From: Myxococcales bacterium
GTDB taxonomy: Bacteria > Myxococcota_A > Polyangia > Polyangiales > Polyangiaceae
Direction: 5' to 3'
Assembly (NCBI GenBank): GCA_016212965.1
Contig: JACRDA010000497.1
Coordinates: forward strand, 26,487-90,486
Length of the DNA stretch: 64,000 nt
Shown here piece after piece: positions 2,723 to 55,362 of the stretch. The notes beneath the pieces were generated by a model that was not told the origin of the DNA, made no database searches, and saw nothing but the letters and a program-made list of their open reading frames with translations. The translations under genes were made by a program, and so were the position numbers. Numbering within the stretch: position 1 is the stretch's first letter; each line of letters starts with the position of its first letter.

Positions 2723-5035
2723 TCAGAACAGGGTGAGCTGCGCGTTCTGGCTGAAGAGGTTGTAGCTGTAGTTGAGGCCAGCCCACTCGGCGATGTTCTT
2801 GTTGAACACGTCGGCCCAGTCGCTGCACGGCCACCAGCCGCACATGCTCGGCTGCCAGGCCTTCACCCAGACGTTGATGCTCCCCTGCAGCAACGTGAGG
2901 GAGAGGTCGAGGCTCGCCGCGCCGGTCACCACGAGCGAAGGCCCGGACACGAGGCCCCACTTCAGATCGCCCACGGCCGGCACGCGCAGACTCACGAGCG
3001 TGATGTCGCCGGTGGCGCCGCCCTTCAGCGCCGCGAGGTCGGCGTAGGCCGACGCCTGCGCGGTGATCTGGGCGTAGGGCGTGACCGTCAGGGTGGCCTG
3101 GCCGATCTTGGTCGACTGGTCGAAGGGAGGATTACCCGCCCCGGTCGCGGCGTTGATCGTGGCCTCGGCGTCGATCCCGGCCGACCCGCCCGCGCACAGC
3201 TTGACGTTCAAGCCTAGGCCGGCGACGCCGTAGTTGTACGTCATGCAATACTCGCGCTGGAAGCTGACGTTCCAGGTCTGGTGGTACGAGGGCACCTCGT
3301 CGGCGACCCCCCAGAGCTTGACCCCGAAGACCTCGACGCCCGCGTCGTAGCCCGAGCCGACGATCGACACGTTGGCGTTGGCCTTGGCCCAGAGGTTCAC
3401 GACGGGGAACGAGAACCAGCCGCCGACGTTGGCGACGGCGTAATTGTTGGTCGAGGCGCCGGAGAGGTTGAGGTAGTTCTGGGTGCCGAGTGCCAGGTTG
3501 GCCGAGACGACGTCGTTGCCCGTCGAGGTGCCCCAGTCCTTGACCATCTCCAGGTTCGACGCCCCCTGCTCGGGGAAGCTCCCAGGGATGAGCTGCACCT
3601 GCTTGACGATGCAGTTGTTGGCGTCGTGATCCCCGTGGTGGCTGTCTTCCGTGAAGCCCTCCGGCACGGCGCACACGCGCAGGTTGAAGAGGCCGTAGTC
3701 GCGCCAGCCTCCGAGGTAGGCGCTGCAGGCCGCGGTGCCGTCCTCCACGAAGATCTTGTGATGGAAGTGATGCGGCTCGCCCGCCGGCAGATCCGCGAAG
3801 TCGTCCGAGGGGACGAGCGGTGCCTGCTGCGGCCCCCAGGTGCCTGCGTGGCTCTCGCAGTCGGCCTGGGTGGTGTAGGCCGGGTTGCTGCACACGAAAT
3901 CGGCGTGCTCCGTGCTCGCGAGCAGGAGCGGCACGTAGCTCTCGCCGGCGACGCAATCGTAGGCGTCGCCCACCTTCTCGGCCGGACAGAAGTCGTAGAA
4001 GATGCGCAGCTTCGCGTCGGGGCCGAAGGTGTCGAGCACGTCGGGCTGCACGGGACCTTCCGTCACGCCGTCGTGGGCCTCCGCCCCGAAGAGCGTGAAG
4101 CTGCCGTCGACCTCGAGCACGGGCGCACCGTGATCCGTGTCGCACAGCTCGGTGGCGAGCTGCCACAGCTGCCCGGCCGCGAGGCAGTCGGCCTCGGTGA
4201 GGCTCACGCCGTCGTCGCAGGCGTAGCTGCCCTGGCGCGGCACCACGCCGATCTCGGTCTCGAGCTCGAACTCCTCGAACTCGACGTCGAGGCCGGGGCT
4301 CGCGTGCACCTCGAGGTCGACGATGCAGCCTTGGCCGGTCTGGCCGGCGAGATCGAGGTAGCACTCCGCGTTCCGATTCTCGCCCTCGGTGTCGGTGAGG
4401 TTGACGTCGAAGAACTGCGTGTTGTGCGAGCTCTCGGGGATGCCGGCGTGGTCGCCCTCCTCGGCGTGCGTGGGGTCGATGGCGACCCAGACGTTGAACG
4501 TCTGGACGGCGTCGCCCTCCCGCAGGCAGTCGTTGGGGATGATGAACTTGTGGCTGAACTCGACGGGTGCCGGAACGGCCTGGTCCGAGGCGAGGAGCTC
4601 GACCTCGAAACTCCCGAGCTGGCAGGTGTGCTGCGTGCTCTCGTCCTGCCCCGGCTCGAGCGCCTCGATGAGGCCGACCTGGATCGTGTGCTGGTGGTTG
4701 CCGTGCTCCGGGAGCAGCCAGAGGTGCACGGTGACCGGGTGGTGCTGGGCGAAGCTCGTCGCCACGTTGTCCTGGTTGTCCTTCACCGCCAGGGACACGA
4801 TCTTCGCGAGCTCCACCTCTGCGGGCGGGGGTGGCTCGAGGCTGCTGGCGTCGACGCAGAGGTCGGAAAGGCACGTGAGCCCCGTGTCGCAGGCGCCGTC
4901 GACGCACGCGCCGCCGACGGACCCCGCGCTCGGGTCGGTCGAGCAACCCGCGAGCGCCGCAGCCACGAGCGCGAGGCCACCGTGGTGCGCGCGCCCTGAG
5001 GAGCGGCCAGTGAAACGAGCAAACCAACTCGACAT
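2723..5035 (-). CDS. Large secreted lipoprotein with a Cys-rich N-terminal module and a beta-rich C-terminal domain ending in Phe (no family recognised)
   Basis: From ORF 2723..5047(-). ATG at 5035 is preceded by GGAGG with a 5-nt spacer (ttGGAGGtctacATG on the minus strand). The N-terminus MSSWFARFTGRSSGRAHHGGLALVAAALAGC is a signal peptide plus lipobox, followed by CVDGACDTGLTCLSDLC. The last ~270 aa are rich in N/S/T/G/W/Y with an alternating hydrophobic pattern and end ...NLFSQNAQLTLF. Confidence 0.7.
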   Translation of the reverse strand: MSSWFARFTGRSSGRAHHGGLALVAAALAGCSTDPSAGSVGGACVDGACDTGLTCLSDLCVDASSLEPPPPAEVELAKIVSLAVKDNQDNVATSFAQHHPVTVHLWLLPEHGNHQHTIQVGLIEALEPGQDESTQHTCQLGSFEVELLASDQAVPAPVEFSHKFIIPNDCLREGDAVQTFNVWVAIDPTHAEEGDHAGIPESSHNTQFFDVNLTDTEGENRNAECYLDLAGQTGQGCIVDLEVHASPGLDVEFEEFELETEIGVVPRQGSYACDDGVSLTEADCLAAGQLWQLATELCDTDHGAPVLEVDGSFTLFGAEAHDGVTEGPVQPDVLDTFGPDAKLRIFYDFCPAEKVGDAYDCVAGESYVPLLLASTEHADFVCSNPAYTTQADCESHAGTWGPQQAPLVPSDDFADLPAGEPHHFHHKIFVEDGTAACSAYLGGWRDYGLFNLRVCAVPEGFTEDSHHGDHDANNCIVKQVQLIPGSFPEQGASNLEMVKDWGTSTGNDVVSANLALGTQNYLNLSGASTNNYAVANVGGWFSFPVVNLWAKANANVSIVGSGYDAGVEVFGVKLWGVADEVPSYHQTWNVSFQREYCMTYNYGVAGLGLNVKLCAGGSAGIDAEATINAATGAGNPPFDQSTKIGQATLTVTPYAQITAQASAYADLAALKGGATGDITLVSLRVPAVGDLKWGLVSGPSLVVTGAASLDLSLTLLQGSINVWVKAWQPSMCGWWPCSDWADVFNKNIAEWAGLNYSYNLFSQNAQLTLF

Positions 5036-5358
5036 GTAGACCTCCAACGAACGTCGCCTGCCCGACGGCGCGACGATCGCCCTTCATCCGTCTTCTTGTT
5101 GTTCAGGCGCGCGCCGAGCCCGCCGCGCCGAGCGATCGCCGCGGTTCCGTGCTCGCGAAGATGGTGCCAGTCATGCGTCCATTGCTCCGACGTCGCTTCC
5201 CACCCTCGCAGCGGCCGTCGCGCATTCCGCCCAGAGTGCCGCAGGGCAGCGCCGGTCGCCATGATGTGTTCCCGTCATTTTGCTGATTCGTCTCGCCGGA
5301 ACGAGACGGCTCCTGTACTGGGGAAGCTGGCGGATTTCAGTGCACACACGGCAGGGAC

Positions 5359-6021
5359 ATGCGCGTCGGACAGGTTCAAGAGCTGGTAGCGAGCACGGCG
5401 GACGCGGCCTTCGCGATCGACGCCCAGGGCATCGTCGTCGCCTGGAACGACGCCTGTGCTGCGCTCTTCGGCGTGCCCGCGGTGAAAGCGCTGGGCGAGG
5501 TTTGCGGGCCGCTCGTCGGCGGCGTGGACGAGTGCGGTCCCGTGTGCTCACCGGAGTGCTGCGTGCTGCAGGCCGCTGGCGCGCGCCGGCCGATCGGCAA
5601 CTTCGACCTGCAAGTCAGGACCGCGGCCGGCATGCGCTGGTGCAACTGCTCCGTGCTGCTCGTGGGAGCGCGCGGCGCGGCGCGGTCGTGGTCGGTCCAC
5701 GTGCTGCGCAACGTCGACCTCAGGAAGCGCCTCGAGGTGCTGGTGCGCGACTTCGTCGTGTCGTCGACCGGTCTCGCCGCCGCCGACGCCGCGAACGTGC
5801 TCGCCGTACGCCGCTCGCCCGTCCAGACCGCGCGTCTGACGGCCCAGGAGCTCGCCGTCCTGCGGCTCGTGGCGAAGGGCAGCTCGACGGCGGCGATCGC
5901 CGTCACGCTCGGCATCGCACCAGTCACCGTCACCAACCACGTGCAAAACGTGCTGCGTAAGCTCGACGCTCACAGTCGGCTCGAGGCGGTGAGGCGCGCC
6001 GAACTCGCCGGGCTCTTGTGA
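5359..6021 (+). CDS. PAS-domain LuxR/GerE-family transcriptional regulator
   Basis: ORF 5359..6021 with an ATG start. The N-terminal region is PAS-like (AFAIDAQGIVVAWNDACAALFG). The C-terminus is a LuxR-type HTH (LTAQELAVLRLVAKGSSTAAIAVTLGIAPVTVTNHVQNVLRKLDAHSRLEAV). Confidence 0.8.
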   Translation: MRVGQVQELVASTADAAFAIDAQGIVVAWNDACAALFGVPAVKALGEVCGPLVGGVDECGPVCSPECCVLQAAGARRPIGNFDLQVRTAAGMRWCNCSVLLVGARGAARSWSVHVLRNVDLRKRLEVLVRDFVVSSTGLAAADAANVLAVRRSPVQTARLTAQELAVLRLVAKGSSTAAIAVTLGIAPVTVTNHVQNVLRKLDAHSRLEAVRRAELAGLL

Positions 6022-43916: not shown

Positions 43917-46900
43917 TCACCGGTCACCCCGACTCGGCTGGCTCGGCTCCGCGCCGGCGCCGCGACGACGCCGGCGCGCGAGCACGAGGCCGAGCGCCGA
44001 CAGAGCCGCCACGAGCGCCGCCTCGGAGTCCCGGTCGTCACCCGCGAGCACGCAGGCGCAGCCGCCTCCACCGGTCGCGAGCCGCCAGTCGCCCGCCGGT
44101 GCGTGGCCGTTGCCCGTGCCGCCCTGGCCCGTGCCGCCGTGGCTCGTGCCGCCCGTGGGCGGGCTGCCGCCGGCGCTCTGCCCGCCGCCGCCGGTCGGGG
44201 CCGAGCCTCCGGTGCCGCTGCCGCCGGCGCCGCCAGTGCCCTGATCCTCGCACAGGCCGTTCACGCAGGTCTGCCCCGACGGGCACACCGTGTTGGCGCA
44301 GCTGATCGGTACGCAGTGCCCGTCGTAGCATTGCTGTCCGGCCGGACACGGGAACTCGCCGGGCGAACAGGGCGCCACGCACTGGCCCCACAGGCAGATG
44401 TCGGAGGGCGAGGGGCAGTTGCCCGGGAGGTCGACGATGCCGTTGCAGTCGTTGTCCGCTCCGTCGCAGACCTCGAGCCCGGGCTTGACCGCACCGACGC
44501 AGTCGAACTGCCCGTTGACGCACACGAGCTGACCCGGCTGGCAAGGCGCCTGGTCGTAGGGCGACTGGGGCACGTCACACGGCTGGCCGACCTGCGGATC
44601 GTTCGGCGTGCAGCAGGTCGGATCGTCGAGGTGCTGGCAGGTCCCGCCGGGCCCGGTGCAGCTGTCGGTCGTGCACGGGTCGCCGTCGCTGCAGTCGGGG
44701 TCGACGTTGCAGCACCCGAGCGGCTTGAGGTCCACGAGCGTGCACGTGCCCGACAGGATCTCGCAGCCGTTCTGCGTGCAGAGATCGTCGGGGTTCTCCC
44801 GGCAGTCGGCGTCCACGGTGCAGCAGCCCGGGGTCGGGGTGTGCTGACACAGGTTGTTCGGCGGGCAGACGTCGACGCTGCAGCCGTTGCCGTCGTCGCA
44901 GTCGGCGTCGGTCTGGCAGCAGCCGCTGATCGGGGTCGACGTGCAGGTCCCGCCCGGCCCCGAGCACTGGTCGACGGTGCAGAACACGCCGTCGTCGCAG
45001 TTCGAGCTCGAGTTGCAGCAGTTCGGCACCGGCGCGTGGTTGCACGCGTTGATCGCGACGTTGCACGTGTCGGTGGTGCACAGGTCGGAATCGTTGCAGT
45101 CGGGATCCTGGGCGCAGCAGTCGAACACGGGCGCGTGCTGGCACTGGCCGCCGGGGGTCGGACACACGTCGGCCGTGCACGGGTTGCCGTCGTCGCAGTC
45201 GGTGTTCGAGATGCAGCAGCTCTGGTCGATGGGGTCGCACGGGCCGACGACCGTCACGTCGGACAGCACCGACGTGACCCAGCCCGGGCCCTTGAGGTTG
45301 GTGCGCACCTGCACGTAGCGGCCGGCGATGCCGGCGAGCGGCGCGCCGTTGACGGCCGGCGCGTACGCCGCCTGGCCCAGGGCCGCGAGCGTGTTGGCCG
45401 CGCGCACGTTGACGGTGAGCGAGGTCAGGGCCGGCACCGCGCCCTGCGGCTCGAGGTTCCAGCGGACCGTCGACCACGGGATGTCGTCTGCGCCGCCGTC
45501 GTAGCCCGAGGAGTCCCAGCTGCCGAGATAGGTGTACGGTGCCTGGCGATCGATCTGGACGCCGGTGAAGTCGCTGTAGAGGTAGGGCCCGTAGTTGTAC
45601 GCGTTCTGCCCCGGGGGCATCGGCACGGCGCCGCGATCGATGGGGTAGGCGGTGCGGCCGCAGTTCGCAGCGGTCTGGACCGGATCGAAGCGCACCAGGT
45701 GGTTGGGCCCGTCCTGCACCGACCAGATGAAGCCGTCGAAGTCGACCGACAGGCCGTGCGGGTTGGCGCCGCCCGTCGGGCAGGTGGCCTCGATGACATT
45801 GGTCGTCGGGTTGATGCGGTAGACGTTGTTGCTGCTGTACCCCGAGGCCCAGATCTTGCCGTTGAGGTCGTAGGTCACGGCCGTGACCTGGCTCGGCACG
45901 GAGACGCAGGTGCAGGTGGGTGGGCTGGCGTCGAAGTCGACCTTGTAGACGCCCGTGCCCGAGTAGCCGCCGGCCCACGCCTTGTGGGTGCCCGGGATGG
46001 CCACGAGGCCGTACACGCTGCCGCAGGTGCCGACGCCGCCGCCGCACGTGACCGAGTCGGCCTGGGCGATGTTGTTGATGTGGATGCGGATGATCTGCCC
46101 GGTGTTGCCAACGCCCGACCAGCCCGGGTTCGACGTGAGGTAGATGTAGTCGTCCGCCGTCGCCGCCGAGTAGAACCAGGCCGTGGTCGGCCAGCCGAAG
46201 GCGGGTGTGAAGACGCGCGACGTCTCGAGCGCGACCGGCTCGTTCGGGTTGAAGCGGTAAACGGTGTGGCCTTGCCAGTTCGCGACCCAGATCTTGCCCT
46301 CGCGATCGACCGCCACCGCGCGGGGAATGTCCCCGACCGCGCCGACGGGAATGGTCGTGAGGATGCACTCGTCGGCCTGCGCGTAGTACTCGACCTCGGC
46401 CGCGGGGGTGCCGAGGGCGGGAGTCTTGTACGGGTCGACGATGCCGTCGCCGTTGGCGTCGTGCGAGGTGTCGATGACGCCGTTGTTGTTGCGATCGATG
46501 CAGTGGGCGAGGTTGCCGGAGAACTTCGAGAGGCTGCCCTGCTTCGCGCCCTCGTAGTAGGCGCGGTTGGCGATCCACACGTCGCCGTTGGTGTCGACCG
46601 CGACGCGGCCCGGGTTGTTGCCCGACGTCGAGGCGCCCGTCGGCAGACCGTTGATGGAGGTGAGCACCGAGTCGAAGCGCGCGGTCTGCCGGCCGAGCGT
46701 GGGGCCGAGGGTCGTGTCGATGCGCACGAGCCAGCCGGGGCTGAGCGGCGTCGGCGCCGTGCCGCCCGGCGAGGTGTTGCTGACCCAGACGAGCCGGGTC
46801 TTCGAGACCGCCGTGCGGCCGAGCACGAGCTGGTCGTTGACGGGGGCGTGCCGGACGTTGTCGAGGATGCCGAGGTCGAAGTCGGCGTTGGTGGTGAACG

Positions 46901-46985
46901 TCCTTTGCTGTGCGGAGGCGGTCCCGTCGAGCAAGGCGGCCACGGCGAAGAAAGAGGCTCGGAGCCAAAGCTTGCAGGCGTTCAC
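43917..46985 (-). CDS. Secreted beta-propeller (NHL/SMP-30-like) protein with a CC..DC.DGN.CT.D.C repeat module, a MopE-like DNDC motif and a MYXO-CTERM-type sorting tail
   Basis: This is the real part of ORF 43917..48473(-). GTG at 46985 is preceded by GGAGGG with a 6-nt spacer, and gives MNACKLWLRASFFAVAALLDGTASAQQ (signal peptide). Propeller-like repeats include GRVAVDTNGDVWIAN, AVAVDREGKIWVANW, TYDLNGKIWASGY and LSVDFDGFIWSV. The Cys-rich module spans 44247-45242. The tail is GGGGCACVLAGDD...ALVAALSALGLVLARRRRRG. Confidence 0.7.
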   Translation of the reverse strand: MNACKLWLRASFFAVAALLDGTASAQQRTFTTNADFDLGILDNVRHAPVNDQLVLGRTAVSKTRLVWVSNTSPGGTAPTPLSPGWLVRIDTTLGPTLGRQTARFDSVLTSINGLPTGASTSGNNPGRVAVDTNGDVWIANRAYYEGAKQGSLSKFSGNLAHCIDRNNNGVIDTSHDANGDGIVDPYKTPALGTPAAEVEYYAQADECILTTIPVGAVGDIPRAVAVDREGKIWVANWQGHTVYRFNPNEPVALETSRVFTPAFGWPTTAWFYSAATADDYIYLTSNPGWSGVGNTGQIIRIHINNIAQADSVTCGGGVGTCGSVYGLVAIPGTHKAWAGGYSGTGVYKVDFDASPPTCTCVSVPSQVTAVTYDLNGKIWASGYSSNNVYRINPTTNVIEATCPTGGANPHGLSVDFDGFIWSVQDGPNHLVRFDPVQTAANCGRTAYPIDRGAVPMPPGQNAYNYGPYLYSDFTGVQIDRQAPYTYLGSWDSSGYDGGADDIPWSTVRWNLEPQGAVPALTSLTVNVRAANTLAALGQAAYAPAVNGAPLAGIAGRYVQVRTNLKGPGWVTSVLSDVTVVGPCDPIDQSCCISNTDCDDGNPCTADVCPTPGGQCQHAPVFDCCAQDPDCNDSDLCTTDTCNVAINACNHAPVPNCCNSSSNCDDGVFCTVDQCSGPGGTCTSTPISGCCQTDADCDDGNGCSVDVCPPNNLCQHTPTPGCCTVDADCRENPDDLCTQNGCEILSGTCTLVDLKPLGCCNVDPDCSDGDPCTTDSCTGPGGTCQHLDDPTCCTPNDPQVGQPCDVPQSPYDQAPCQPGQLVCVNGQFDCVGAVKPGLEVCDGADNDCNGIVDLPGNCPSPSDICLWGQCVAPCSPGEFPCPAGQQCYDGHCVPISCANTVCPSGQTCVNGLCEDQGTGGAGGSGTGGSAPTGGGGQSAGGSPPTGGTSHGGTGQGGTGNGHAPAGDWRLATGGGGCACVLAGDDRDSEAALVAALSALGLVLARRRRRGAGAEPSQPSRGDR

Positions 46986-47099
46986 GGGAAGCCCTCCAGT
47001 CTCCGTCAGAGTAGGGGAGCTTGACGCAGGCCACAAGGCTGGCGGACGCTCGCGACCCGCCCGACCCGCTCCTCGCGCTCCACGCCCCCGCCTCGTCGC

Positions 47100-48182
47100 A
47101 TGCGTCGCAAGAGCAAGACCCAGCTCGTGTTCCCGGCCCTCGGCGCGGCCGGGCTCGCCCTCCTCGTCCTCGCGCTCTTCCTCGTCGTTCCGGGCCGGGG
47201 AGCCCGCGGGCGCGAGGTCCGCGTCCTCACCGACCGCACCGAGTCGCACCTGGCTCCGCTCTTCCTCGCCTTCGAGCACGCCACGGGCATCACCGTCCGG
47301 GCGGTCTACCTCGAAAAGGGGCTCCTTGCCCGGCTCGAGAGTCGACCCGACGAGGCGGACGTCGTCATCACCAAGGACGCCGATCTGCTCGAGATCGCCA
47401 GGCACAAGGGGCTGCTCCAGCCGCTGTCCTCCGCCGCGATCGAGGAGGCCGTGCCCGAGCGCTTTCGCGAGCCCTCGGGCGCCTATTTCTCGGACTCCTA
47501 CCGTGCGCGGGTCATCTTCTACGCGCGGGATCGAGTCGCGCCCGAGGAGCTGTCGACCTACGAGGCGCTCGCCGAGCCGAAGTGGAAGGGCCGCGTCTGC
47601 ATCCGGTCGGGCTACCACGACTACAACCTGAGCCTCTTCGGCCAGATGATGAGCGTGATCGGGCCCGAGCGGACGCGCGCCTTTCTCGAGGGGCTGCGGG
47701 CGAACCTCGCCCGTACGCCGGGCGGTGACGACCGCGGTCAGGTGCGCGCCATCTACGAGCGCAAGTGCGACGTGGCCATCGCCAATTCCTACTACATGGG
47801 GATCATGCTCTCGTCGGCCGAGCAGCGGCCGTGGGGGCTCGCGTCGGCCGTGTTCTTCCCCGACCAGAGCGAGGGCGGCAGCTTCATCCTGCGCAGTGGG
47901 CTCGCGCTGACCCGTGCCGGCGACAACGTCGCAGCGGCCACGCGGCTGCTCGAGCACCTGGTGTTGCCGGAGACGCAGGACCTGATGGCCAACCTGACCT
48001 TCGCCTATCCCGTGGCCGGACGGGCCACGTTGAACGAGGTCAACCAGGAGCTCGGAGCGGGCCAGCCGGGGATCGAGCGCGGTGCGTTCGAGGTGCACAG
48101 CGTGCCGCTCGCCGATATCGTGCGAAACCGGGAGGCGGTGCTCCGCATGCTCGATGCGATTGAGTTCGACCAGCCGCGCTGA
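47100..48182 (+). CDS. fbpA: Fe(3+) ABC transporter substrate-binding protein (FbpA/HitA/AfuA family)
   Basis: ORF 47100..48182 with a signal/anchor (LVFPALGAAGLALLVLALFLVV). It closely resembles Haemophilus/Neisseria FbpA as I recall it: KGRVCIRSGYHDYNLSLFGQMM, EGLRANLARTPGGDDRGQVRAI, and ANSYYMG carrying the two iron-liganding Tyr. Confidence 0.85.
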   Translation: MRRKSKTQLVFPALGAAGLALLVLALFLVVPGRGARGREVRVLTDRTESHLAPLFLAFEHATGITVRAVYLEKGLLARLESRPDEADVVITKDADLLEIARHKGLLQPLSSAAIEEAVPERFREPSGAYFSDSYRARVIFYARDRVAPEELSTYEALAEPKWKGRVCIRSGYHDYNLSLFGQMMSVIGPERTRAFLEGLRANLARTPGGDDRGQVRAIYERKCDVAIANSYYMGIMLSSAEQRPWGLASAVFFPDQSEGGSFILRSGLALTRAGDNVAAATRLLEHLVLPETQDLMANLTFAYPVAGRATLNEVNQELGAGQPGIERGAFEVHSVPLADIVRNREAVLRMLDAIEFDQPR

Positions 48183-49725
48183 GCGGGCGGCGCGCGCCGC
48201 GCCCCTCGTGCTCGTCCTCGCCGTCGTCGCGCTCCCGGTGGTGACGCTGCTCGCGGTCGCGTTCGCGCACGCGACCCCGGCCTCGGCGGAGCTCCTCGGC
48301 CACCTGCTCGGCACGGTCGTCCCCGCGCAGACGGCACAGGGGCTCCTCGCCGCGGGCGGCGCGGCGCTCCTCGGGGCCGCGCTCGCGGCGGGTGGGCTCG
48401 CGGCCGCGCTTTTCGACTTTCCCGGCCGCGCCGTGCTCGAGCGCGCGCTCCTCGTGCCCCTGTTGCTCCCCACGTGGTTCGTCGCGGTCGTCCATCGCGA
48501 GGTCCTCGGCGCGCGGGGCGTCGGGTGGCTCGGCTTGTGCCTCGGTGTCGGAGCGGCGCCGCTGTTCCACCTGCTCGGCAGCGCGGCGCTCCGCGCGCTC
48601 CCCGGCGCCTACGTCGAGGTCCTGCGGCTCGCCGGACGCGCGCGCGGGCTCGCCGTCGCGCGCCACCTCGTGCCGCTCGCTCTTCCGGCGCTCGGCGCGG
48701 CGGCCGCGCTCGCCGCGCTCACCGGCTGGGCCGATGCGCCGACGGCCCGTGTCCTCGCCGTTCCCACGCTGGCCGTGGGCATGCTCGATCAGTGGTCCGC
48801 CCGCGAGGACGCCTCCGCCGGGGCGCTGCTCGGCCTCGGGGTCGCCTCCGTCAGCATGCTCGGGGCCTGGGCGCTGCTCCACGCGCTCGGGCGCATCCGC
48901 TGGCAGGACGACGCGCGGCTCGGGGCGTCGCGCGCACGGCGCGTCCGCCTCCGGGGGATCTCGGCAGCGGTCCCGTGGTTGCTCGCCGCCCCCCAGCTCG
49001 TGCTCGGGCTGGTTCTGCCGTGGGCAGCCATCGCCGGCTGGGCGGCGGAGCGGTTCGAGCGCGCGACGCTCGCCACGCTCGGCGGCGACGCTGCCCGCAC
49101 GCTCCTCTGCGCCGCCGCCGGCACGCTGCTCGCCGCCGCCCTGGCGCTGCCGATCCTCCACGCCCGGGCCTTCGCGCCCGCGGGCCGCCTCGGCAGGGCC
49201 GCCGCGGCGCTCGCGCTCGTGCCGTTCGCGCTCCCCGCCGCGGTGCTCGCCGCCGCCGTCCTGTGGATGTCTCCGAGCGGTGCCCGCTCGGGCCCCGCCG
49301 CGGCGTTCAACGCCACGCTCCTGCCCCTCGTGATGGCGCTCGGCGTGCATCTCTGCGCGGTCTTCGTCGCGGCCGGCCTGGCTGGCCTCCGGCGTCAGGG
49401 GCGCGAGCACGTGGCGTTGCTCCTGCTCCTCGGGCACACTCGGGTGAGGTCGCTCGGCCTGCTCCGGCCGTTTCTGTCGCGCCCCGTCGCGGCGGCGGCG
49501 GCCTTCGTGTTCCTCGAGTGCATCAAGGACGTGCAGCTCACGACCGTGCTCTCGCCCTTCGGCTTCTCCTCGATCTCGGCTCGCGTGCTCGAGCTCGCCC
49601 AGACGGAGCGCATGCGCGACTGCGCGGTCTGGATGCTGGGCCTCGGCCTCATCGGGCTCTACCCGCTCATGACGCTCGCGCGCACCGCGCGCGACCCCGA
49701 GGAGCCCGAGACCGAGCCATGCTGA
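48154..49725 (+). CDS. fbpB: Fe(3+) ABC transporter permease (two-domain FbpB-type)
   Basis: Part of ORF 48082..49725. ATG at 48154 overlaps the end of fbpA by 29 nt; an alternative TTG lies at 48160. It is about 12 TM, Ala/Leu-rich, with a duplicated permease architecture. Confidence 0.75.
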   Translation: MRLSSTSRAERAARAAPLVLVLAVVALPVVTLLAVAFAHATPASAELLGHLLGTVVPAQTAQGLLAAGGAALLGAALAAGGLAAALFDFPGRAVLERALLVPLLLPTWFVAVVHREVLGARGVGWLGLCLGVGAAPLFHLLGSAALRALPGAYVEVLRLAGRARGLAVARHLVPLALPALGAAAALAALTGWADAPTARVLAVPTLAVGMLDQWSAREDASAGALLGLGVASVSMLGAWALLHALGRIRWQDDARLGASRARRVRLRGISAAVPWLLAAPQLVLGLVLPWAAIAGWAAERFERATLATLGGDAARTLLCAAAGTLLAAALALPILHARAFAPAGRLGRAAAALALVPFALPAAVLAAAVLWMSPSGARSGPAAAFNATLLPLVMALGVHLCAVFVAAGLAGLRRQGREHVALLLLLGHTRVRSLGLLRPFLSRPVAAAAAFVFLECIKDVQLTTVLSPFGFSSISARVLELAQTERMRDCAVWMLGLGLIGLYPLMTLARTARDPEEPETEPC

Positions 49726-50732
49726 CCGTCGACGATCTCCGGATCCGGCTCGGCACGGGCTTCGCGCTCGACGGCGTCTCCTTCGCCGTCGCGCCGGGCG
49801 AGATCTTCGCCGTCCTCGGCCCGAACGGCAGCGGCAAGTCGACCCTGCTGCGGCTCCTCGCCGGGCTCGTGGCTCCGGCGGGCGGATCGATCGCGTGGTG
49901 CGGGGCGAAGCTCTCCGAGGGGCGGCGCGTGCTCGTGCCCCCCGCGCGGCGCGGGGTCGGCCTGCTGCTGCAGGAGGGCGTGCTCTTTCCGCACCTCGGG
50001 GTGCGCGCGAACGTGGCGCTCGGGCTCGGACCCGGGCGCTCGGACGACGAGACCGAGCGCCGGGTGTCCGAGGCGCTCGCCACGGCCCGGATCGGCCACC
50101 TCGGTGCGGCGCGGGTCGCGCGCTTGAGCGGCGGCGAGGCCCAGCGCGTGGCCCTCGCGCGCGCGCTGGTGCAGAGTCCTACCGTGATGCTCCTCGACGA
50201 GCCGTTCCACAGTCTCGACACCGAGGTGAAGACCGCCATCATGCGCGAGATCCGGGCCCTCGTGGCGGACCGGCGCCTCGCGGCCGTGCTCGTCACCCAC
50301 GACGCCGACGAGGCGAGCGCGCTCGCCGACCGGGTCCTGCTCCTCTGCGCCGGGCGCAAGATCCAGGAGGGTACGCTCGACGAGCTCTACCGCGCCCCCG
50401 CCGACGCCTGGGTCGCGCGCTTCCTCGGCGAGGTCGAGTCGGTCGACGCCGCGACGGCTGCCGCGGCGGGCATCGCCCTGCCGGAGCACGCCGGCGGCAC
50501 GCTCTCGTTCCGGCCCGACGCCCTCTTGCTCGAGCGCTCGGATGGCGAGGGCGGCCTCGAGGTGACCGCCGTGCGCCGGTGCCGGCAAGTCACCGAGGTG
50601 AGCGTGGCCTTGCCCGGCGGCCGAGTCCTCGTCGGCCGGTGCGCGGCGGAGCCGTTGCCGACGGTCGGCGAGCGCGCCCGCGCGCGCCTCGCGTGGCTCT
50701 TGCCGCCGAGCGCGGAGCAGGACGCCGCATGA
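49719..50732 (+). CDS. fbpC: ABC transporter ATP-binding protein (FbpC-type, with C-terminal regulatory/TOBE-like domain)
   Basis: In frame with the tail of ORF 48474..50732. ATG at 49719 overlaps the permease stop (ATGCTGA). Motifs are Walker A GPNGSGKST, signature LSGGEAQRV, Walker B MLLDEPF and the H-loop THD. Confidence 0.85.
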   Translation: MLTVDDLRIRLGTGFALDGVSFAVAPGEIFAVLGPNGSGKSTLLRLLAGLVAPAGGSIAWCGAKLSEGRRVLVPPARRGVGLLLQEGVLFPHLGVRANVALGLGPGRSDDETERRVSEALATARIGHLGAARVARLSGGEAQRVALARALVQSPTVMLLDEPFHSLDTEVKTAIMREIRALVADRRLAAVLVTHDADEASALADRVLLLCAGRKIQEGTLDELYRAPADAWVARFLGEVESVDAATAAAAGIALPEHAGGTLSFRPDALLLERSDGEGGLEVTAVRRCRQVTEVSVALPGGRVLVGRCAAEPLPTVGERARARLAWLLPPSAEQDAA

Positions 50733-51052
50733 GGATCCTGCGCATTCGCCGCGGTTTCACGACCAACTCGTCCGGCGCCAACGAGTTCCTCCCCGACGGC
50801 GGCGTCGTCATCTACGACGGCGGCACGCCCCGCGACGGCGGGACGCTGCCGGGCCCCAGCCCCGCGCCGGTGCTCACCGGCGTGCGGCCGTGGGAGCCCG
50901 AGCCCCCGCCCCCCGCGGGCTGCACGCCGTCGAGCAACGCGACGGCCCTCGGCGTGGTCTCGCTCGTGGTCGCCGGCGCGTTTCTCGTGGTCCCGGTGGT
51001 ACGCCTGCTGCGGCGCCGCAAGCGCAAGGAGCGGCACGACGATGAGACCTGA
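50729..51052 (+). CDS. Small protein (107 aa) with a Pro-rich middle, a single Cys in a GCTPSS motif, a C-terminal TM helix and a poly-basic tail
   Basis: In frame with the tail of ORF 49895..51052. ATG at 50729 overlaps the fbpC stop (ATGA). Nearly every third codon position is G/C. The sequence is MRILRIRRGFTTNSSGANEFLPDGGVVIYDGGTPRDGGTLPGPSPAPVLTGVRPWEPEPPPPAGCTPSSNATALGVVSLVVAGAFLVVPVVRLLRRRKRKERHDDET. There is no N-terminal signal peptide. Confidence 0.55.
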   Translation: MRILRIRRGFTTNSSGANEFLPDGGVVIYDGGTPRDGGTLPGPSPAPVLTGVRPWEPEPPPPAGCTPSSNATALGVVSLVVAGAFLVVPVVRLLRRRKRKERHDDET

Positions 51053-52313
51053 GGGGCGAGGCGACAGGCCGGCCCAGCCCCTCGTGCTGCGGCGCGAGGT
51101 CTTCGGCGGCATCCTGTTCGACCCCGTCGATGGCACCCACCTCGAGCTCGACGCCGCCGGCTTCGAGGTCGTGCGCGGCTGGCTCGTCGACGGGCGCGAG
51201 CCGACCACGTCGGAGGCGCGCGACTTCGTCGCGAGCGTGCGCCGCGAGATGCCCACCCTCGGCCCGGGCGCGCGCCGCGTGCGCGCACGGCTCGAGCTCC
51301 CGGCCATGCCGGAGGCGCGGCACGCCAGCGTGCTCGCCTCACCCACGCTCGTCGATCTGCAGGTGACGCGCCGCTGCACCATGGGTTGCCCACAGTGCTA
51401 CGCCTCGTCCGAGCCCGAGGGCGCGCACATGGCCCTGTCCGACGCCGCGCGGGTCCTCGGCGAGGTCGCCGCGGCGGGGACGTGCCAGCTCGCCATCGGC
51501 GGTGGCGAGCCCCTGCTGCACCCCGACATCGTGCCGATCCTCGAGCTCGCGCACGACCTCGGGCTGGTCCCCAACCTGACCACGACCGGGCTCGGGCTCA
51601 CGCCGCACGTGCTCGACGCTCTGGCGCGCTCGTGCGGGGCCGTGGCCCTCAGCCTCGAGGACGTCGGCGCGGGCTTTCGAGAACGCCGCAAGGCGGGCTT
51701 CGCCTTCTTCGAGGCGTCGCTCGCGAAGCTCCGCGCGCACGCGATCCGCACCGTCTTCCAGGTGACGCTGAGCGGCGAGAACCTGCCGCGCCTGCCGGCC
51801 ATCGTCGACTACTGCCTCGGGGTCCCCGAGCTCTACGGCGTCATCTTCCTCGCGCACAAGCCGGTCGGGCGGGGCGAGGGCTACGACACGCCGCTCTCGG
51901 CCGTCCACCCCGACGAGCTCTACCCCTGGCTGCGCGAGGCCTTCCTGCGCCTCGTCGGGCACACCAAGGTCGGCTACGACTGCTGCCTCACCCCGGGCAT
52001 CGCCGGCATCGACGTGGAGCTCGGCTTCGGCGAGCGCGAGCAGCTCGAGGGCTGCTCGGCGGCGCGCTCGAGCGTGGGCGTGAGCACCGACCTCGACGTG
52101 GTGCCGTGCACCTTCTTGACCCACCGACCGCTCGGCAACCTGCGGAGCCGATCCTTGCTCGACATCTGGCAGGGCCCCGAGGCGACCGCCTTCCGCGCGG
52201 AGCTCGACGCCCTCGGCGACGGGAACGCGGCCTGCCGGACCTGCCGGCTGCGCGACGCCTGCCTCGGAGGATGCCCGGAGTGGGACCTCGTGCGCTGCAC
52301 GCGCGACGGTTGA
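51042..52313 (+). CDS. Radical SAM / SPASM-domain enzyme with an N-terminal PqqD/RRE-like extension
   Basis: ORF 51042..52313. The ATG overlaps the small gene by 11 nt. N-terminal residues ~15-70 read LRREVFGGILFDPVDGTHLELDAAGFEVVRGWLVDG, which is PqqD/MftB-like. The rSAM cluster motif is CTMGCPQC, with a GGGEPLL SAM motif. The SPASM part has CSAARSSVGVSTDLDVVPC and then CRTCRLRDACLGGC, which fits C-x2-C-x5-C-x3-C exactly. Confidence 0.85.
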   Translation: MRPEGRGDRPAQPLVLRREVFGGILFDPVDGTHLELDAAGFEVVRGWLVDGREPTTSEARDFVASVRREMPTLGPGARRVRARLELPAMPEARHASVLASPTLVDLQVTRRCTMGCPQCYASSEPEGAHMALSDAARVLGEVAAAGTCQLAIGGGEPLLHPDIVPILELAHDLGLVPNLTTTGLGLTPHVLDALARSCGAVALSLEDVGAGFRERRKAGFAFFEASLAKLRAHAIRTVFQVTLSGENLPRLPAIVDYCLGVPELYGVIFLAHKPVGRGEGYDTPLSAVHPDELYPWLREAFLRLVGHTKVGYDCCLTPGIAGIDVELGFGEREQLEGCSAARSSVGVSTDLDVVPCTFLTHRPLGNLRSRSLLDIWQGPEATAFRAELDALGDGNAACRTCRLRDACLGGCPEWDLVRCTRDG

Positions 52314-54070: not shown

Positions 54071-54484
54071 GCGGCGCGGAGCCGCCGCTCACGGCGCCAC
54101 GGTCCGGATCTGGCCCTGGGTCGCGAAGTACGCGCGCTCGGCCCAGACGAGATGGGCGCCGTCGACCGCCAACCCCGCGACGAACGACTGATTCGTCGCG
54201 AGCGGGACGCTGGTCCCGCCGCCGACCGGAACGCGCAGCACCTTGGAGAGCTTCAAGAACTCGTGCCCCGAGACCTCGGACCCACCCCGAGCTACGGCCG
54301 CTTCGACGCGTCGTCCGGGGGCGATACGTCGGTCCCCGCACGAGCGATCGGCCCCATGCTAGGCCACCGGAGGCGCAAGGTTCTCGGCAAATCTGCTCCC
54401 CCGTCCTGGCCCAGACTGGCACGGGTGACCTTAGGGAATATAAGTAATGGCAATGATTCCGAATTGTTGGACTCTTGCCGGCTG

Positions 54485-54501
54485 TGGCATGCGGCCTGCT
54501 T
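54485..54501 (+). promoter_or_regulatory. Candidate sigma-54 (-24/-12) promoter upstream of the Gly-rich lipoprotein pair
   Basis: The site is TGGCAT-gcggc-CTGCTT. GG at 54486-87 and GC at 54498-99 are separated by exactly 10 nt, against the consensus TGGCAC-N5-TTGCW. It lies ~45 nt upstream of ATG 54545 and just downstream of an unusually AT-rich patch. Confidence 0.3.
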
Positions 54502-54544
54502 ATCTCGCTGGGAGCTGCTACCTCTGCCACCCAGGACGCACGCC

Positions 54545-54967
54545 ATGACCCTCCGCCAATCGAAGCCGCGCCCCCGTACCGCGATCACCGCCCCGAGCTA
54601 TCCCCGCGCGCTCGGGCTGGTCGCGCTCGGCATGTTGACCGCGTGTGCCGGAACGGTGCAGGTCGAGGGCGAGACGACCGCGTCCGACCCGATCGTGACG
54701 GGCAGCGGCGGTAGCGGCGCGGGCGGCTACGGCGTGGGCGGTGGGCTCGACGGCGGTATGCCCGAGCCCTTCGGCGGCTCCGGCGGAGCCGGCGCGACCG
54801 CGGGAGCGGGCGGCGCGGGCGCGAGCGCCGGGGCGGGCGGCGTCGGCGCGGGTGGCTACGGCGACGGCGGCTACGGCTACGGCGGTGGCCTCGACGGTGG
54901 CATCGGCGAGTCTTTCGGCGGAGCCGGCGGCGCGGGTGCGGCGGGTGGAGCCGGAGGCGCGCCATGA
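54545..54967 (+). CDS. Gly-rich lipoprotein (copy 1 of a tandem pair)
   Basis: This is the real part of ORF 54152..54967, starting at ATG 54545. It begins MTLRQSKPRPRTAITAPSYPRALGLVALGMLTAC (lipobox), followed by TVQVEGETT and G/A-rich tracts containing two (E)PFGG(S/A)GGAG motifs. Confidence 0.6.
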   Translation: MTLRQSKPRPRTAITAPSYPRALGLVALGMLTACAGTVQVEGETTASDPIVTGSGGSGAGGYGVGGGLDGGMPEPFGGSGGAGATAGAGGAGASAGAGGVGAGGYGDGGYGYGGGLDGGIGESFGGAGGAGAAGGAGGAP

Positions 54968-55362
54968 CCCTGCGCCAGGCGAAGCCGCGGCCGCGGACCG
55001 AGATCGTCGTTCCGCGCTATCCCCGCGCCCTCGGGCTGGTGGCGCTCGGCATGCTGACCGCGTGCGCCGCGACGGTGCAGGTCGAGGGCGAGACCACGAG
55101 CTCGACCGACACGGGCACCGGCGCGAGCGGTCCCGCGGGGGGCATCGCCGAGCCGTTCGGCGGCTCCGGCGGCGGCGGCGCGAGCGCGACCGCGGGAGCG
55201 GGAGGTGCGGGTGCGGGTGGCGCGGGCGCGAGCGCCGGAGCGGGCGGCGTCGGCACGGGTGGCTACGGCTACGGTGGCGGGCCCGACGGCGACATCGGCG
55301 AGCCCTTCGGCGGAGCGGGCGGAGCGGGCGCGAGCGGCGGAGCGGGCGGCGCCGCGCCGTGA
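54964..55362 (+). CDS. Gly-rich lipoprotein (copy 2 of a tandem pair)
   Basis: ORF 54964..55362. The ATG overlaps the stop of copy 1 (ATGA). It begins MTLRQAKPRPRTEIVVPRYPRALGLVALGMLTAC, and its first ~130 nt are visibly very similar to copy 1. Confidence 0.6.
   Translation: MTLRQAKPRPRTEIVVPRYPRALGLVALGMLTACAATVQVEGETTSSTDTGTGASGPAGGIAEPFGGSGGGGASATAGAGGAGAGGAGASAGAGGVGTGGYGYGGGPDGDIGEPFGGAGGAGASGGAGGAAP

Follow-up and report, generated by a model that had tools for sequence, protein, structure and literature searches.

A class III FbpABC-type iron importer operon joined to a conserved small-protein/radical-SAM gene pair, a candidate maturase and its target

Introduction

Several described systems pair a radical-SAM enzyme of the SPASM class with a genetically encoded target. 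The enzymes SuiB (of the SuiB/SuiA streptide system), SkfB and CteB share an RRE, a radical-SAM and a SPASM domain, and SuiB-type targets are short secreted leader/core peptides. In the PqqE/PqqD/PqqA, MftC/MftB/MftA and QhpD/QhpC systems a small gene product is the target of a SPASM enzyme and an RRE, and what they make serves cell physiology instead of acting as an antibiotic. The SPASM enzyme anSME acts on a protein rather than on a free peptide, and its target residue is a Ser or a Cys.

Iron importers of the FbpABC, FutABC and class III FbpA kind (M. haemolytica, Moraxella, Thermus, Synechocystis) use three Tyr ligands and N-lobe Arg residues for carbonate, and the FbpABC/FutABC systems combine a fused two-domain permease with an FbpC-like ATPase; we know of no fourth and fifth gene in the described Fbp and Fut operons. 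Methanobactin operons encode a modified peptide together with MbnE and MbnT. Here we analyse a window of 64,000 nucleotides from a Myxococcales bacterium, in which an FbpABC-type importer is encoded with a candidate radical-SAM maturase/target pair. We found no description of this combination: as an earlier sequence-only reading of this DNA had supposed, neither Pfam, NCBIfam nor the literature gave a curated family or a paper describing such a system.

Results

Five overlapping genes form one conserved unit

Five co-directional ORFs on the + strand occupy positions 47100-52313 and overlap at all four junctions; reading the sequence directly confirmed the five-gene unit first proposed. Gene 1 (47100-48182, +, 360 aa) encodes a class III FbpA-type binding protein, gene 2 (48154-49725, +) a fused two-domain FbpB-like ABC permease of uncertain start codon, gene 3 (49719-50732, +, 337 aa) an ABC ATPase of the FbpC/PotA/PhnT type, gene 4 (50729-51052, +, 107 aa) a small membrane-anchored protein, and gene 5 (51042-52313, +, 423 aa) an enzyme with RRE-like, radical-SAM and SPASM domains. 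The direct read gave ATGCTGA at the permease/ATPase junction (49719-49725), ATGA at the ATPase/small-protein junction (50729-50732), and an 11-nt overlap between the ATG at 51042 of the radical-SAM gene and the TGA at 51050-51052 of the small-protein gene. At the first junction, the binding-protein gene stops at 48180-48182 and the permease may start at GTG 48082, ATG 48154 or TTG 48160, the ATG giving an overlap of 29 nt. A start at GTG 48208 was disfavoured, since it would truncate the first hydrophobic, presumably transmembrane, stretch, which can be aligned with the 60%-identical permease of locus L001; thus this junction overlaps too, by at least 23 nt. In more distant orthologues it is a short gap without overlap.

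In all five genes, the small ORF included, GC content is 0.91-0.95 at the third codon position (0.94 in the small-protein ORF) against 0.46-0.58 at the second, as expected of coding DNA in a genome of 74% GC. Neither a credible internal promoter or terminator nor an Rfam element was found.

The five-gene order is kept in Myxococcota, Beta-, Gamma- and Alphaproteobacteria, Spirochaetota, Verrucomicrobiota, Lentisphaerota and Planctomycetota, and a Bdellovibrionota locus lacks the binding protein only, so that the set spans about nine to ten bacterial phyla. Among loci with a radical-SAM protein at least 44% identical and sufficient flank, order and strand are conserved in every case, with two partial exceptions: L009, where the binding protein is missing, and L013, where an icd gene has been inserted. 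L008 carries the small-protein/enzyme pair without the importer. The flanking genes differ completely between loci while the identity of the radical-SAM protein falls to 44%. The last two genes overlap by 11 nt in this operon, as they do in L001 and L004; the overlap is 8 nt in L003 and 4 nt in the CPR loci. The idea of a single coupled unit held: three of its four overlaps are beyond doubt, and gene order is conserved across phyla. The operon is made of two joined modules, the importer and the small-protein/enzyme pair, conserved as a unit.

Genes 1-3 encode a class III FbpA-type iron importer

Searched with phmmer against the PDB, the binding protein matched M. haemolytica FbpA (1q35, E=1e-58), as well as FutA1/FutA2 and the Bordetella, Moraxella and Campylobacter FbpA proteins. 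Its residues R46, R135, Y175, Y231 and Y232 align with R10, R101, Y142, Y198 and Y199 of 1q35, and the three Tyr and the two carbonate-holding Arg are invariant in 20/20 cassette orthologues; the ligand assignment follows the class III FbpA scheme (PMC10182148). The protein also matches Pfam SBP_bac_6, SBP_bac_1 and SBP_bac_11 and begins with a signal or anchor sequence. The permease of the window matched no Pfam model and gave a weak PDB match to 9j4r_A ('Iron ABC transporter permease', E=2e-4, residues 71-495). Orthologues further removed share 23-32% identity with it, and several of these (L003, L004, L005) carry Pfam BPD_transp_1. The ATPase matches Pfam ABC_tran (117 bits), FbpC 3fvq (E=2e-47) and the iron ABC ATPase 9j4r_B (E=3.5e-47), and has about 100 extra residues at its C-terminus, which in orthologues form TOBE_2. 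The FbpABC identity proposed from the letters alone was borne out by these matches, with all ligand positions kept. By homology, genes 1-3 encode an FbpA/FbpB/FbpC-type Fe3+ ABC importer with a class III FbpA and synergistic carbonate, which carries Fe3+ with carbonate from the periplasm to the cytoplasm.

Gene 5 encodes a three-domain radical-SAM/SPASM enzyme

The enzyme scored above the cut-offs of PF04055 (57 bits), PF13186 (42 bits) and TIGR04085 (38 bits). It reached the cut-off of no curated NCBIfam subfamily, scoring 71 bits for PqqE against a cut-off of 381 and 54 for MftC against 265. Both cysteine motifs previously noted are present: the CxxxCxxC radical-SAM cluster motif CTMGCPQC (C112/C116/C119; 51375-51398, +), invariant in 20/20 sequences, and, within the SPASM domain (52053-52298, +), C-x2-C-x5-C-x3-C at C398-C411 (CRTCRLRDACLGGC). 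All seven SPASM cysteines (C338, C356, C398, C401, C407, C411 and C419) are invariant in alignment A2, and the enzyme is predicted to require three [4Fe-4S] clusters.

The N-terminal extension had been likened to an RRE, and a structural model and a profile alignment place such a PqqD-fold-like domain at residues ~12-70 (51075-51251, +). In the AlphaFold model of the enzyme (pLDDT 83.9, pTM 0.87), this region forms a three-stranded sheet (14-19, 22-27, 32-36) and helices (38-48, 57-69) at pLDDT 85-93, and R17, E19, G22, G23 and D37 are invariant. The Pfam PqqD model found nothing in the N-domain, even at E=10. A profile alignment to SuiB joined profile positions 8-407 to chain residues 25-441, the N-domain included (E=1.6e-26), and the top Foldseek structures were SuiB, SkfB and CteB, SuiB again being matched over the entire enzyme with its N-domain (E=1.6e-17, ~450 aligned columns). 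Judged by sequence profile and model, the closest solved relatives of the enzyme are these peptide maturases with an N-terminal RRE.

Gene 4 carries a conserved N-terminal motif

A word-index search found 39 homologues of the small protein and an exhaustive HMM search extended the family to 186 clusters at 50% identity, with no family found in Pfam or NCBIfam. Gene 4 belongs to a genuine conserved protein family. Its single Cys, which the earlier description had stressed, exists (C65) but is not conserved in the family and is irrelevant.

The conserved element, absent from that description, is a 22-residue N-terminal motif (MRILRIRRGFTTNSSGANEFLP, residues 1-22; 50729-50794, +), which in the family reads M-[RK]-I-L-[RK]-x-[RK]-[RK]-G-[FY]-T-T-N-S-S-x-x-x-E-[WFY]-[LIV]-P. 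Its core is invariant across the 27 sequences of alignment A1 (M1, R5, R7, R8, G9, F10, T11, T12, N13, S14, S15, N18 and E19). A census of 185 sequences gave GFTTNSS in 131, GYTTNSS in 32, GFITNSS in 11 and GFSTNCS in 5. Ser14 is thus replaced by Cys in five cluster representatives; the one whose locus was examined, P0276 (L085), sits between the ATPase and radical-SAM genes. The motif is followed by a variable linker, mostly rich in Pro, Ala, Ser and Thr, then by a single hydrophobic helix assigned by hydropathy (ALGVVSLVVAGAFLVVPVVRLL, residues 73-94; 50945-51010, +), of mean Kyte-Doolittle value 2.6 over 19 residues and present in all bacterial members, and finally by a tail that is basic and then acidic (RRRKRKERHDDET; 51011-51049, +). 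Every bacterial family member has 2-6 Lys/Arg in the 8 residues past the helix.

The small-protein/enzyme pair exists without the importer

The small-protein gene lies directly upstream of the enzyme gene wherever the enzyme is at least 33% identical, and likewise in CPR loci that have no importer. In support of the suggestion that the 107-aa protein is the partner or substrate candidate, its conserved homologues therefore adjoin the enzyme in relatives. The motif accompanies the radical-SAM gene without an importer in CPR bacteria (L028, L029, L030, L032, L037) and Asgard archaea (L035, L038). In most CPR bacteria the pair stands alone, and in one it overlaps an MFS transporter gene; in the Asgard archaea the motif heads soluble proteins adjoining the enzyme gene, one of them with leucine-rich repeats (LRR), that have no membrane anchor. 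One Haliangium-like MAG also carries the pair away from any iron importer. These occurrences indicate that the importer is an add-on rather than the defining partner and, for CPR and Asgard, that the function of the pair need not concern iron. The pair is the older, two-gene module. Conserved adjacency shows the pairing of enzyme and small protein, which would act as maturase and target.

Discussion

Our results confirm what the sequence-only reading observed and partly support its interpretation. We give a probability of about 0.5 to the reading in which the enzyme recognises and modifies the small-protein motif, yielding a membrane-tethered importer accessory whose chemistry and iron link we infer. 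The RRE-like domain would bind the basic alternating segment of residues 2-8 (K/R-I-L-R-I-R-R), and the radical-SAM active site would then modify the adjoining G-[FY]-T-T-N-S-S...E-[WFY] segment. The best candidate site would be Ser14, since it alone is swapped for Cys in some family members. Such an exchange suggests chemistry on a CH2-OH or CH2-SH side chain, perhaps oxidation of the anSME type or an ether/thioether cross-link with an acceptor close by. As the helix lies at the extreme C-terminus, the protein would probably be completed before insertion, so that a cytoplasmic enzyme could act first. Held at the membrane by helix and flexible linker, the product may handle, accept or reduce imported iron, or control the pump. 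Note that this is not a canonical RiPP, since the operon has neither protease nor exporter, and what follows residue 22 is a linker, not a variable core. Several further findings count against this reading: the basic cluster past the helix predicts, by the positive-inside rule, that the C-terminus is cytoplasmic and the motif outside after insertion; the Pfam PqqD model misses the N-domain; upstream of 20 loci no Fur box was found; and the tie to the importer has its exceptions in L008, L009, L013, CPR bacteria and Asgard archaea. The reasons that the sequence-only reading offered for the iron link (Fe-S demand, an iron-responsive product, a metallophore) are conjecture.

Another possibility, which we regard as unlikely, is that the unmodified motif is simply a docking peptide for the RRE-like domain, holding the enzyme beside the transporter while it acts elsewhere, for example on a transporter subunit, a lipid, or a small molecule that has been imported or sits in the membrane. 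A motif at the very N-terminus, with a long flexible linker leading to an anchor, is typical tether design, the structural neighbours include SPASM enzymes with non-peptide substrates (GDGT-MAS, BtrN, DesII, BlsE), and the CPR pair coupled to an MFS transporter instead would fit as well. However, G9-S15 is near-invariant across bacteria, CPR and Asgard, small polar residues included, which exceeds the needs of a docking strand; the exchange of Ser14 for Cys is hard to explain in a pure docking site, and the Asgard proteins that carry the motif are soluble and anchorless.

It is quite improbable that the motif is modified in the cytoplasm and the N-terminal part then translocated (N-out, C-in) to work with the binding protein, as a modified tip on a Pro/Ala/Ser/Thr-rich stalk, such as a tethered iron-capturing group feeding FbpA. 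Linkers of this composition are frequent in extracellular proteins. By the positive-inside rule, a Lys/Arg cluster flanks the cytoplasmic side of a membrane helix, so the basic residues past the helix predict a cytoplasmic C-terminus, and once inserted the motif would lie outside. In our view helix and basic tail resemble C-terminal sorting signals, of which the sole trace is a match to the LPXTG-anchor Pfam model at E=7.9, far below threshold. Methanobactin is a precedent for a metal-binding modified peptide of the envelope. Bufferins are another (PMC12452194). Against this, the small protein has no signal peptide, the +3 to +4 charge of its N-terminus disfavours translocation of an N-tail of 70-150 residues, classic iron ligands such as Cys and His are missing from the motif, and the Asgard versions are soluble and anchorless.

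Very doubtful is a switch that senses iron or Fe-S status, in which the enzyme would be active only with sufficient iron and either the modification or binding of the holo-form would shut or tune the importer. Three [4Fe-4S] clusters and a regulatory-type C-terminal domain on the ATPase would suit such a role, and since neither a Fur box nor any further iron-regulatory signal was found upstream of the operon in 20 loci, there is room for post-translational control; but this scheme is purely inferential, an irreversible radical modification would be an odd regulator, and CPR bacteria and Asgard archaea have the pair without any importer. Finally, that the modules share no function, the importer supplying iron generally or the adjacency reflecting chance or co-transfer, is highly improbable: the link is lost in L008 and looser in L013 and L009, but about nine phyla retain order, strand and overlapping junctions despite divergence, and the iron demand of one enzyme is trivial.

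Compared with the known systems, gene 5 has the three-domain architecture of SuiB, SkfB and CteB, its best full-length matches in sequence profile and fold, although at only 15-18% identity. As in SuiB/SuiA, a small gene for the presumed target adjoins the enzyme gene; here, however, the target is membrane-anchored, its conserved part is the first 22 residues, and the operon has an importer in place of a protease or exporter. The structural neighbour anSME also acts on a protein, as we propose here, and its Ser/Cys target parallels the Ser14/Cys exchange; yet it has no RRE domain, its (C/S)-x-P-x-R target motif is absent from our small protein, and gene 5 belongs to no anSME family in NCBIfam or Pfam. 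The sequence neighbours of gene 5 include PqqE and MftC, with scores far below the family cut-offs. Like the Pqq, Mft and Qhp products, the product here would serve cell physiology, but the motif differs, other pathway genes are absent and the product stays membrane-anchored.

Methanobactin operons, with MbnE and MbnT, offer a comparable layout, an enzyme-modified ribosomal peptide encoded with components of metal transport or metal homeostasis. Bufferins offer another (PMC12452194). The methanobactin and bufferin enzymes are of the MNIO/DUF692 type, not radical SAM, and their peptides are secreted or periplasmic and Cys-based, unlike the Cys-free motif and signal-less protein found here; moreover, our binding protein is built for bare Fe3+-carbonate and not for a complex with a peptide. 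The importer itself shares with the FbpABC/FutABC and class III FbpA systems the Tyr ligands, the carbonate Arg, the fused permease and the FbpC-like ATPase, and departs from their operons in that a small anchor protein and a radical-SAM gene are translationally coupled to the ATPase gene.

Organization of the five-gene cassette

The region from 47100 to 52313 is filled by five co-directional ORFs on the + strand, in a window with a GC content of ~74%. Three of the four junctions were read directly on this strand: the permease stop and the ATPase start share ATGCTGA (49719-49725), the ATPase and small-protein genes share ATGA (50729-50732), and the small-protein gene overlaps the radical-SAM (rSAM) gene by 11 nt (ATG at 51042, TGA at 51050-51052). 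The binding-protein gene stops at 48180-48182, and since the possible permease starts (GTG 48082, ATG 48154 and TTG 48160) all lie before this stop, the first junction overlaps too. A later start, GTG 48208, was discarded because it would cut the first hydrophobic, presumably transmembrane, stretch in the alignment with the 60%-identical orthologue from L001, one of the orthologous loci that we fetched. The four overlaps proposed in the sequence-only reading are thus upheld, the first of them from the start-codon candidates and the L001 alignment. Third-position GC is 0.91-0.95 over all five genes, and 0.94 in the small ORF, as in true coding sequences of this genome. A scan gave no credible internal promoter or terminator in the cassette, and no Rfam elements were found in 44-54 kb of the window.

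Regulation of the upstream region by Fur, raised in the same reading, did not find backing. The scan covered 400 nt ahead of the binding-protein gene, both in the window and at 19 loci. Even the best sites departed from the 19-mer consensus at 6-10 positions and did not exceed each locus's own background, so the scan gives no evidence that Fur would control the cassette.

The neighbourhood was surveyed with one genome per species, by tblastn searches of every fetched locus with the five proteins of the window. Wherever the rSAM enzyme is at least 44% identical and the flank is long enough, the five genes keep their order and strand. This was seen in Myxococcota and well beyond: in Thiobacillus, Hydrogenophilales, Rhodocyclaceae, Sedimenticolaceae, Rhodobacterales, Spirochaetales, Verrucomicrobia, Lentisphaerales, Brocadiaceae and the Chromatiaceae Halochromatium glycolicum DSM 11080, Thiohalocapsa halophila DSM 6210 and Thiohalocapsa sp. 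ML1. Note that in Halochromatium the small gene is present and uncalled, starting MKILRIRRGFTTNSSSYTEWLPPPP. A single Pseudobdellovibrionaceae locus (L009, Bdellovibrionota) is without the binding-protein gene, in one Polyangiaceae MAG the ATPase and small genes are separated by a gene for isocitrate dehydrogenase, and a Haliangium-like MAG has the small-protein and enzyme genes without the importer, preceded by a thymidine kinase gene.

Genes outside the five differ entirely between loci and none is conserved with the cassette, in the window or elsewhere. Several are described here in their own right. Directly downstream of the H. glycolicum cassette, on the opposite strand, lies an ebo-type cluster (L003:9397-15813, - strand) encoding EboA, UbiA, TatD, AP_endonuc_2 and a phosphodiesterase; its position is probably coincidental, because it is absent next to the cassette elsewhere. 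The divergent upstream gene of the window (43917-46994, - strand) encodes a protein of ~1025 aa with beta-propeller matches (SGL, NHL, Vgb_lyase) and many Cys-rich repeats. Its C-terminus (a Cys-containing motif, a hydrophobic helix and RRRRR) resembles a MYXO-CTERM-type sorting signal, for which no NCBIfam model matched; a relative of this gene is also upstream of the cassette in L001. Finally, 54152-55362 (+ strand) holds two tandem paralogous ORFs, each with a lipoprotein-signal-like MTLRQ[SA]KPRPRT...LGMLTACA followed by Gly/Ala-rich low-complexity sequence, the second of which (54964-55362) had no family match.

The importer belongs to the class III Fbp systems

The assignment of the first three genes to an FbpABC importer was borne out. 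The binding protein (47100-48182) matches solved ferric-binding proteins, namely M. haemolytica FbpA (1q35, E=1e-58), 7li0 (E=2.8e-47) and 4elo (E=8e-18), together with Synechocystis FutA1 and FutA2 and the Bordetella, Moraxella and Campylobacter FbpA proteins. Its residues R46, R135, Y175, Y231 and Y232 align to the identical R10, R101, Y142, Y198 and Y199 of 1q35, which we take to be the ligand residues of that structure, and the five are invariant in 20/20 binding proteins from orthologous cassettes. In class III FbpA, Fe3+ is held by three Tyr of the C-lobe and the synergistic carbonate by Arg residues of the N-lobe (PMC10182148). Both the homology to solved members and these ligand positions place the binding protein in this class.

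The ATPase (49719-50732) is a standard ABC ATPase (ABC_tran, 117 bits), whose top-scoring solved relatives include FbpC 3fvq (E=2e-47) and 9j4r_B, the ATPase of an 'iron ABC transporter'. A Pfam search with the window permease (48154-49725) gave no match; the protein has homologous orthologues in which BPD_transp_1 is recognised, and its residues 71-495 weakly match the iron permease 9j4r_A. An ABC ATPase and a BPD_transp_1-type permease, the latter through its orthologues, make this a Type I ABC importer of the FbpBC kind. The NCBIfam matches to aminoethylphosphonate or thiamine systems are far under their cut-offs. A FbpABC-type ferric importer, with predicted Fe3+ binding, is therefore well supported by homology, and as judged from its sequence nothing sets the importer apart from other class III Fbp systems.

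The enzyme has the architecture of peptide maturases

The fifth gene (51042-52313) encodes a radical-SAM protein of 423 aa (PF04055, 57.4 bits against a cut-off of 29.5) with a SPASM domain (PF13186, 41.7 against 21.5; TIGR04085, 38.2 against 27). The motifs quoted in the sequence-only reading are exact: CTMGCPQC lies at C112-C119, and the SPASM Cx2Cx5Cx3C is CRTCRLRDACLGGC at C398-C411. In an alignment of 20 homologues (44-77% identity), the cluster cysteines C112, C116 and C119 are invariant (20/20), and so are the auxiliary-cluster cysteines C338, C356, C398, C401, C407, C411 and C419 and the N-domain residues R17, E19, G22, G23 and D37.

A PqqD-like RiPP recognition element (RRE) had also been proposed at the N-terminus. 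The Pfam model PF05402 did not match the whole enzyme at E<=0.01 or residues 1-103 alone at E<=10, so this part of the proposal has no sequence-model match, but at the level of fold it agrees. In the AlphaFold model of the enzyme (pLDDT 83.9, pTM 0.87), the N-domain (pLDDT 85-93) has strands at 14-19, 22-27 and 32-36 and helices at 38-48 and 57-69: a three-stranded antiparallel sheet and then helices, N-terminal to the rSAM barrel as in SuiB, CteB and SkfB. The family profile aligned to residues 25-441 of the SuiB chain, including its N-terminal recognition domain, and the top Foldseek ranks were SuiB, SkfB and CteB, all RRE/rSAM/SPASM peptide maturases, followed by anSME, PqqE and ChlB. These comparisons were made on full-length alignments, and they bear out the RRE-like/rSAM/SPASM architecture.

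The NCBIfam search did not place the enzyme in any characterised subfamily, a placement that could have pointed to a different substrate. It reaches the cut-off of none of the 49 subfamily models touched; the best is StsB (78 against 625 bits), with NirJ2 at 72 against 500, PqqE at 71 against 381 and MftC at 54 against 265. Membership of StsB, PqqE, NirJ/NirJ2, AhbC/AhbD, MftC, ScmE/ScmF, the GDL-motif and GeoRSP families and others was thus not found.

The small protein carries a conserved N-terminal motif

The 107-aa small protein (50729-51052) belongs to a conserved family adjoining the enzyme gene across phyla, as the search for its homologues revealed. A word-indexed search gave 39 homologues. 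An exhaustive profile search, with clustering at 50% identity, gave 186 representatives, of which almost all are 70-185 aa long and match the profile from residue 1 onward. A 44-column profile of the motif recovered only 10 proteins, a yield limited by the word index of that search. The family members are matched by no Pfam or NCBIfam model. By its codon pattern and conservation, the small ORF is a genuine gene and not a chance ORF.

In the family alignment the first 22 residues read M-[RK]-I-L-[RK]-x-[RK]-[RK]-G-[FY]-T-T-N-S-S-x-x-x-E-[WFY]-[LIV]-P. This motif is followed by a linker of 13-129 residues, which is rich in Pro/Ala/Ser/Thr in the majority of bacterial members, those of CPR excepted, then by one hydrophobic helix, a Lys/Arg cluster and acidic residues. 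The protein had been described as Cys-bearing; it does have one Cys, C65, but this residue is not kept across the family. A twin-arginine export signal, suggested by R-R-G-F in the motif, was rejected, since the motif is not followed by a hydrophobic stretch and some lineages lack the Arg pair.

Counted over 185 sequences, the core is GFTTNSS in 131, GYTTNSS in 32, GFITNSS in 11 and GFSTNCS in 5; the rest are single variants, including GFTSNSS, GYVTNSS, GFVTNSS and one TNFS. In the five GFSTNCS carriers (cluster representatives P0241, P0259, P0276, P0284 and P0293), the change of Ser14 to Cys is coupled with Thr11 to Ser relative to GFTTNSS, and the one such locus fetched, that of P0276 (L085:922-1431), keeps the ATPase/small protein/rSAM context. 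Judging from this pattern, the Ser/Cys exchange may mark the modified residue. A fusion of ATPase and small protein (P0171) would, had it been genuine, have given the motif a cytoplasmic location. The contig it comes from (L086) is frameshifted in the binding-protein, permease and rSAM genes, and the fusion is most likely an assembly artefact.

The motif protein and the enzyme occur without the importer

In five CPR (Patescibacteria) or CPR-like loci, an anchored motif protein starting MEILSVIKGFVTNSSSANYWL or similar overlaps by 4 nt the gene of an rSAM enzyme 33-38% identical to that of the window (small genes at L028:2253-2540, L029:604-984, L030:3270-3569, L032:3677-3916 and L037:5552-6001). 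The available flanks of these loci hold no Fbp-like genes. In the importer's place, the Saccharibacteria locus L037 has an MFS transporter gene (4332-5555) that overlaps the small gene by 4 nt. As a separate observation, L028 (1391-1897, - strand) and L030 (2503-2928, - strand) share another conserved gene, which lies upstream of the pair and divergent from it; its product is a small protein, secreted or in the membrane (...AAEKSSFHIFYERTFGPIGAIAGIIAM...), with no Pfam match.

In Asgard archaea, rSAM enzymes 27-29% identical, N-domain included, adjoin soluble proteins headed by the motif. Directly downstream of the rSAM gene, a Promethearchaeota locus encodes a 473-aa protein with C-terminal leucine-rich repeats (LRRs) that starts MKIIKFIDGFITNSSSVGTT (L038:7218-8639, + strand; motif MKIIKFIDGFITNSSS), and a Helarchaeota locus has a 153-aa motif protein beside the rSAM that starts MRILKIIDGFVTNSSSSS (L035:8059-8520, + strand; motif MRILKIIDGFVTNSSS). 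More Asgard-like fragments carry the motif. LRR genes flank the rSAM gene in L034 and L035. In two small-genome archaea, one a Woesearchaeota MAG and one unclassified, distant rSAM homologues with the N-domain are followed by a conserved protein of 180-194 aa (L058:1889-2431 and L063:4629-5213) with ...YEDYDWWN..., without the motif and with no Pfam or NCBIfam match.

Motif and enzyme thus stay associated although the motif heads three different kinds of protein. Of the arguments for recognition of the motif by the enzyme, this is the strongest here, and the pair is the core of the system. Its presence on unrelated Asgard bodies and on small anchored CPR proteins suggests an old, portable modification module.

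A proposed maturase and its candidate membrane-anchored substrate

We propose that the enzyme is the maturase of the small protein, and that the product is a membrane accessory of the importer, a reading to which we give a probability of about one half. The N-domain would bind the basic alternating strand of residues 2-8, the rSAM active site would modify the G-[FY]-T-T-N-S-S...E-[WFY] segment, and the product would remain at the membrane and serve the importer. With the helix at the very C-terminus, insertion would come only after the chain is complete, giving a cytoplasmic enzyme time to act beforehand. The best candidate for the modified residue is Ser14, since only Ser or Cys is accepted there, save in the one TNFS sequence. 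A Ser-or-Cys pattern is known for the target residue of anSME.

A wider form of this proposal we hold only tentatively: an unrecognised rSAM modification would act on G-[FY]-x-T-N-S-S at a protein N-terminus, a motif that bacteria, CPR bacteria and Asgard archaea have in common, and in bacteria the modified, tethered tip would be a so far unknown fourth component of Fbp importers. If so, the tip might for instance bear a group derived from the peptide that takes up or reduces Fe3+ on its exit from the permease.

Clearly less probable than the maturase reading is that the small protein is just a tether, docking or anchoring the enzyme while itself unmodified; the membrane helix suits such a role, and the near-invariant core with its Ser/Cys exchange points to modification. 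Periplasmic display of a modified motif we regard as unlikely. In its favour, the Lys/Arg cluster that follows the helix would keep the C-terminus in the cytoplasm, which would place the motif outside. Three features speak instead for a motif inside the cell: the N-terminus is charged, there is no signal peptide, and the Asgard versions are soluble. An iron-sensing switch seems to us more doubtful again; the negative Fur scan would leave room for control after translation. That the genes are unrelated neighbours, as the importer-free loci might suggest, is very improbable in view of the order kept across phyla.

The handling of Fe3+ arriving through Fbp/Fut-type importers is poorly understood, and an enzyme-matured membrane protein tied to the importer in many phyla would, if confirmed, add a new component to iron uptake in bacteria. 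For rSAM enzymology, the system offers an uncurated RRE/SPASM family with a well-defined, unusually conserved 22-residue candidate target. It should interest radical-SAM and iron-transport specialists alike, and it is directly testable in the three culturable Chromatiaceae carriers.

Comparison with known systems

In Pfam, NCBIfam and the searchable literature we found no description of the small-protein family and its motif, of its pairing with the enzyme, or of this pair joined to a binding-protein-dependent iron importer; the literature was queried for rSAM/SPASM enzymes in combination with FbpA, with transporters of the iron ABC type and with precursors that span the membrane, and for the motif sequence. 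A canonical RiPP cluster has a precursor with a leader and a variable, released core, and a protease and/or exporter. Here, the small protein beyond residue 22 is a low-complexity linker and a membrane anchor, with no released core, and the conserved five-gene set of the loci compared has no protease or exporter gene; the system is therefore not a canonical RiPP cluster. The enzyme presumably works as the RRE/rSAM/SPASM maturases do, yet it falls outside every curated subfamily. As for anSME, its target motif in sulfatases, (C/S)-x-P-x-R, does not occur in the small protein, and NCBIfam and Pfam place the enzyme in no anSME family; anSME itself is without an RRE, whereas the enzyme described here carries an N-terminal RRE-like domain.
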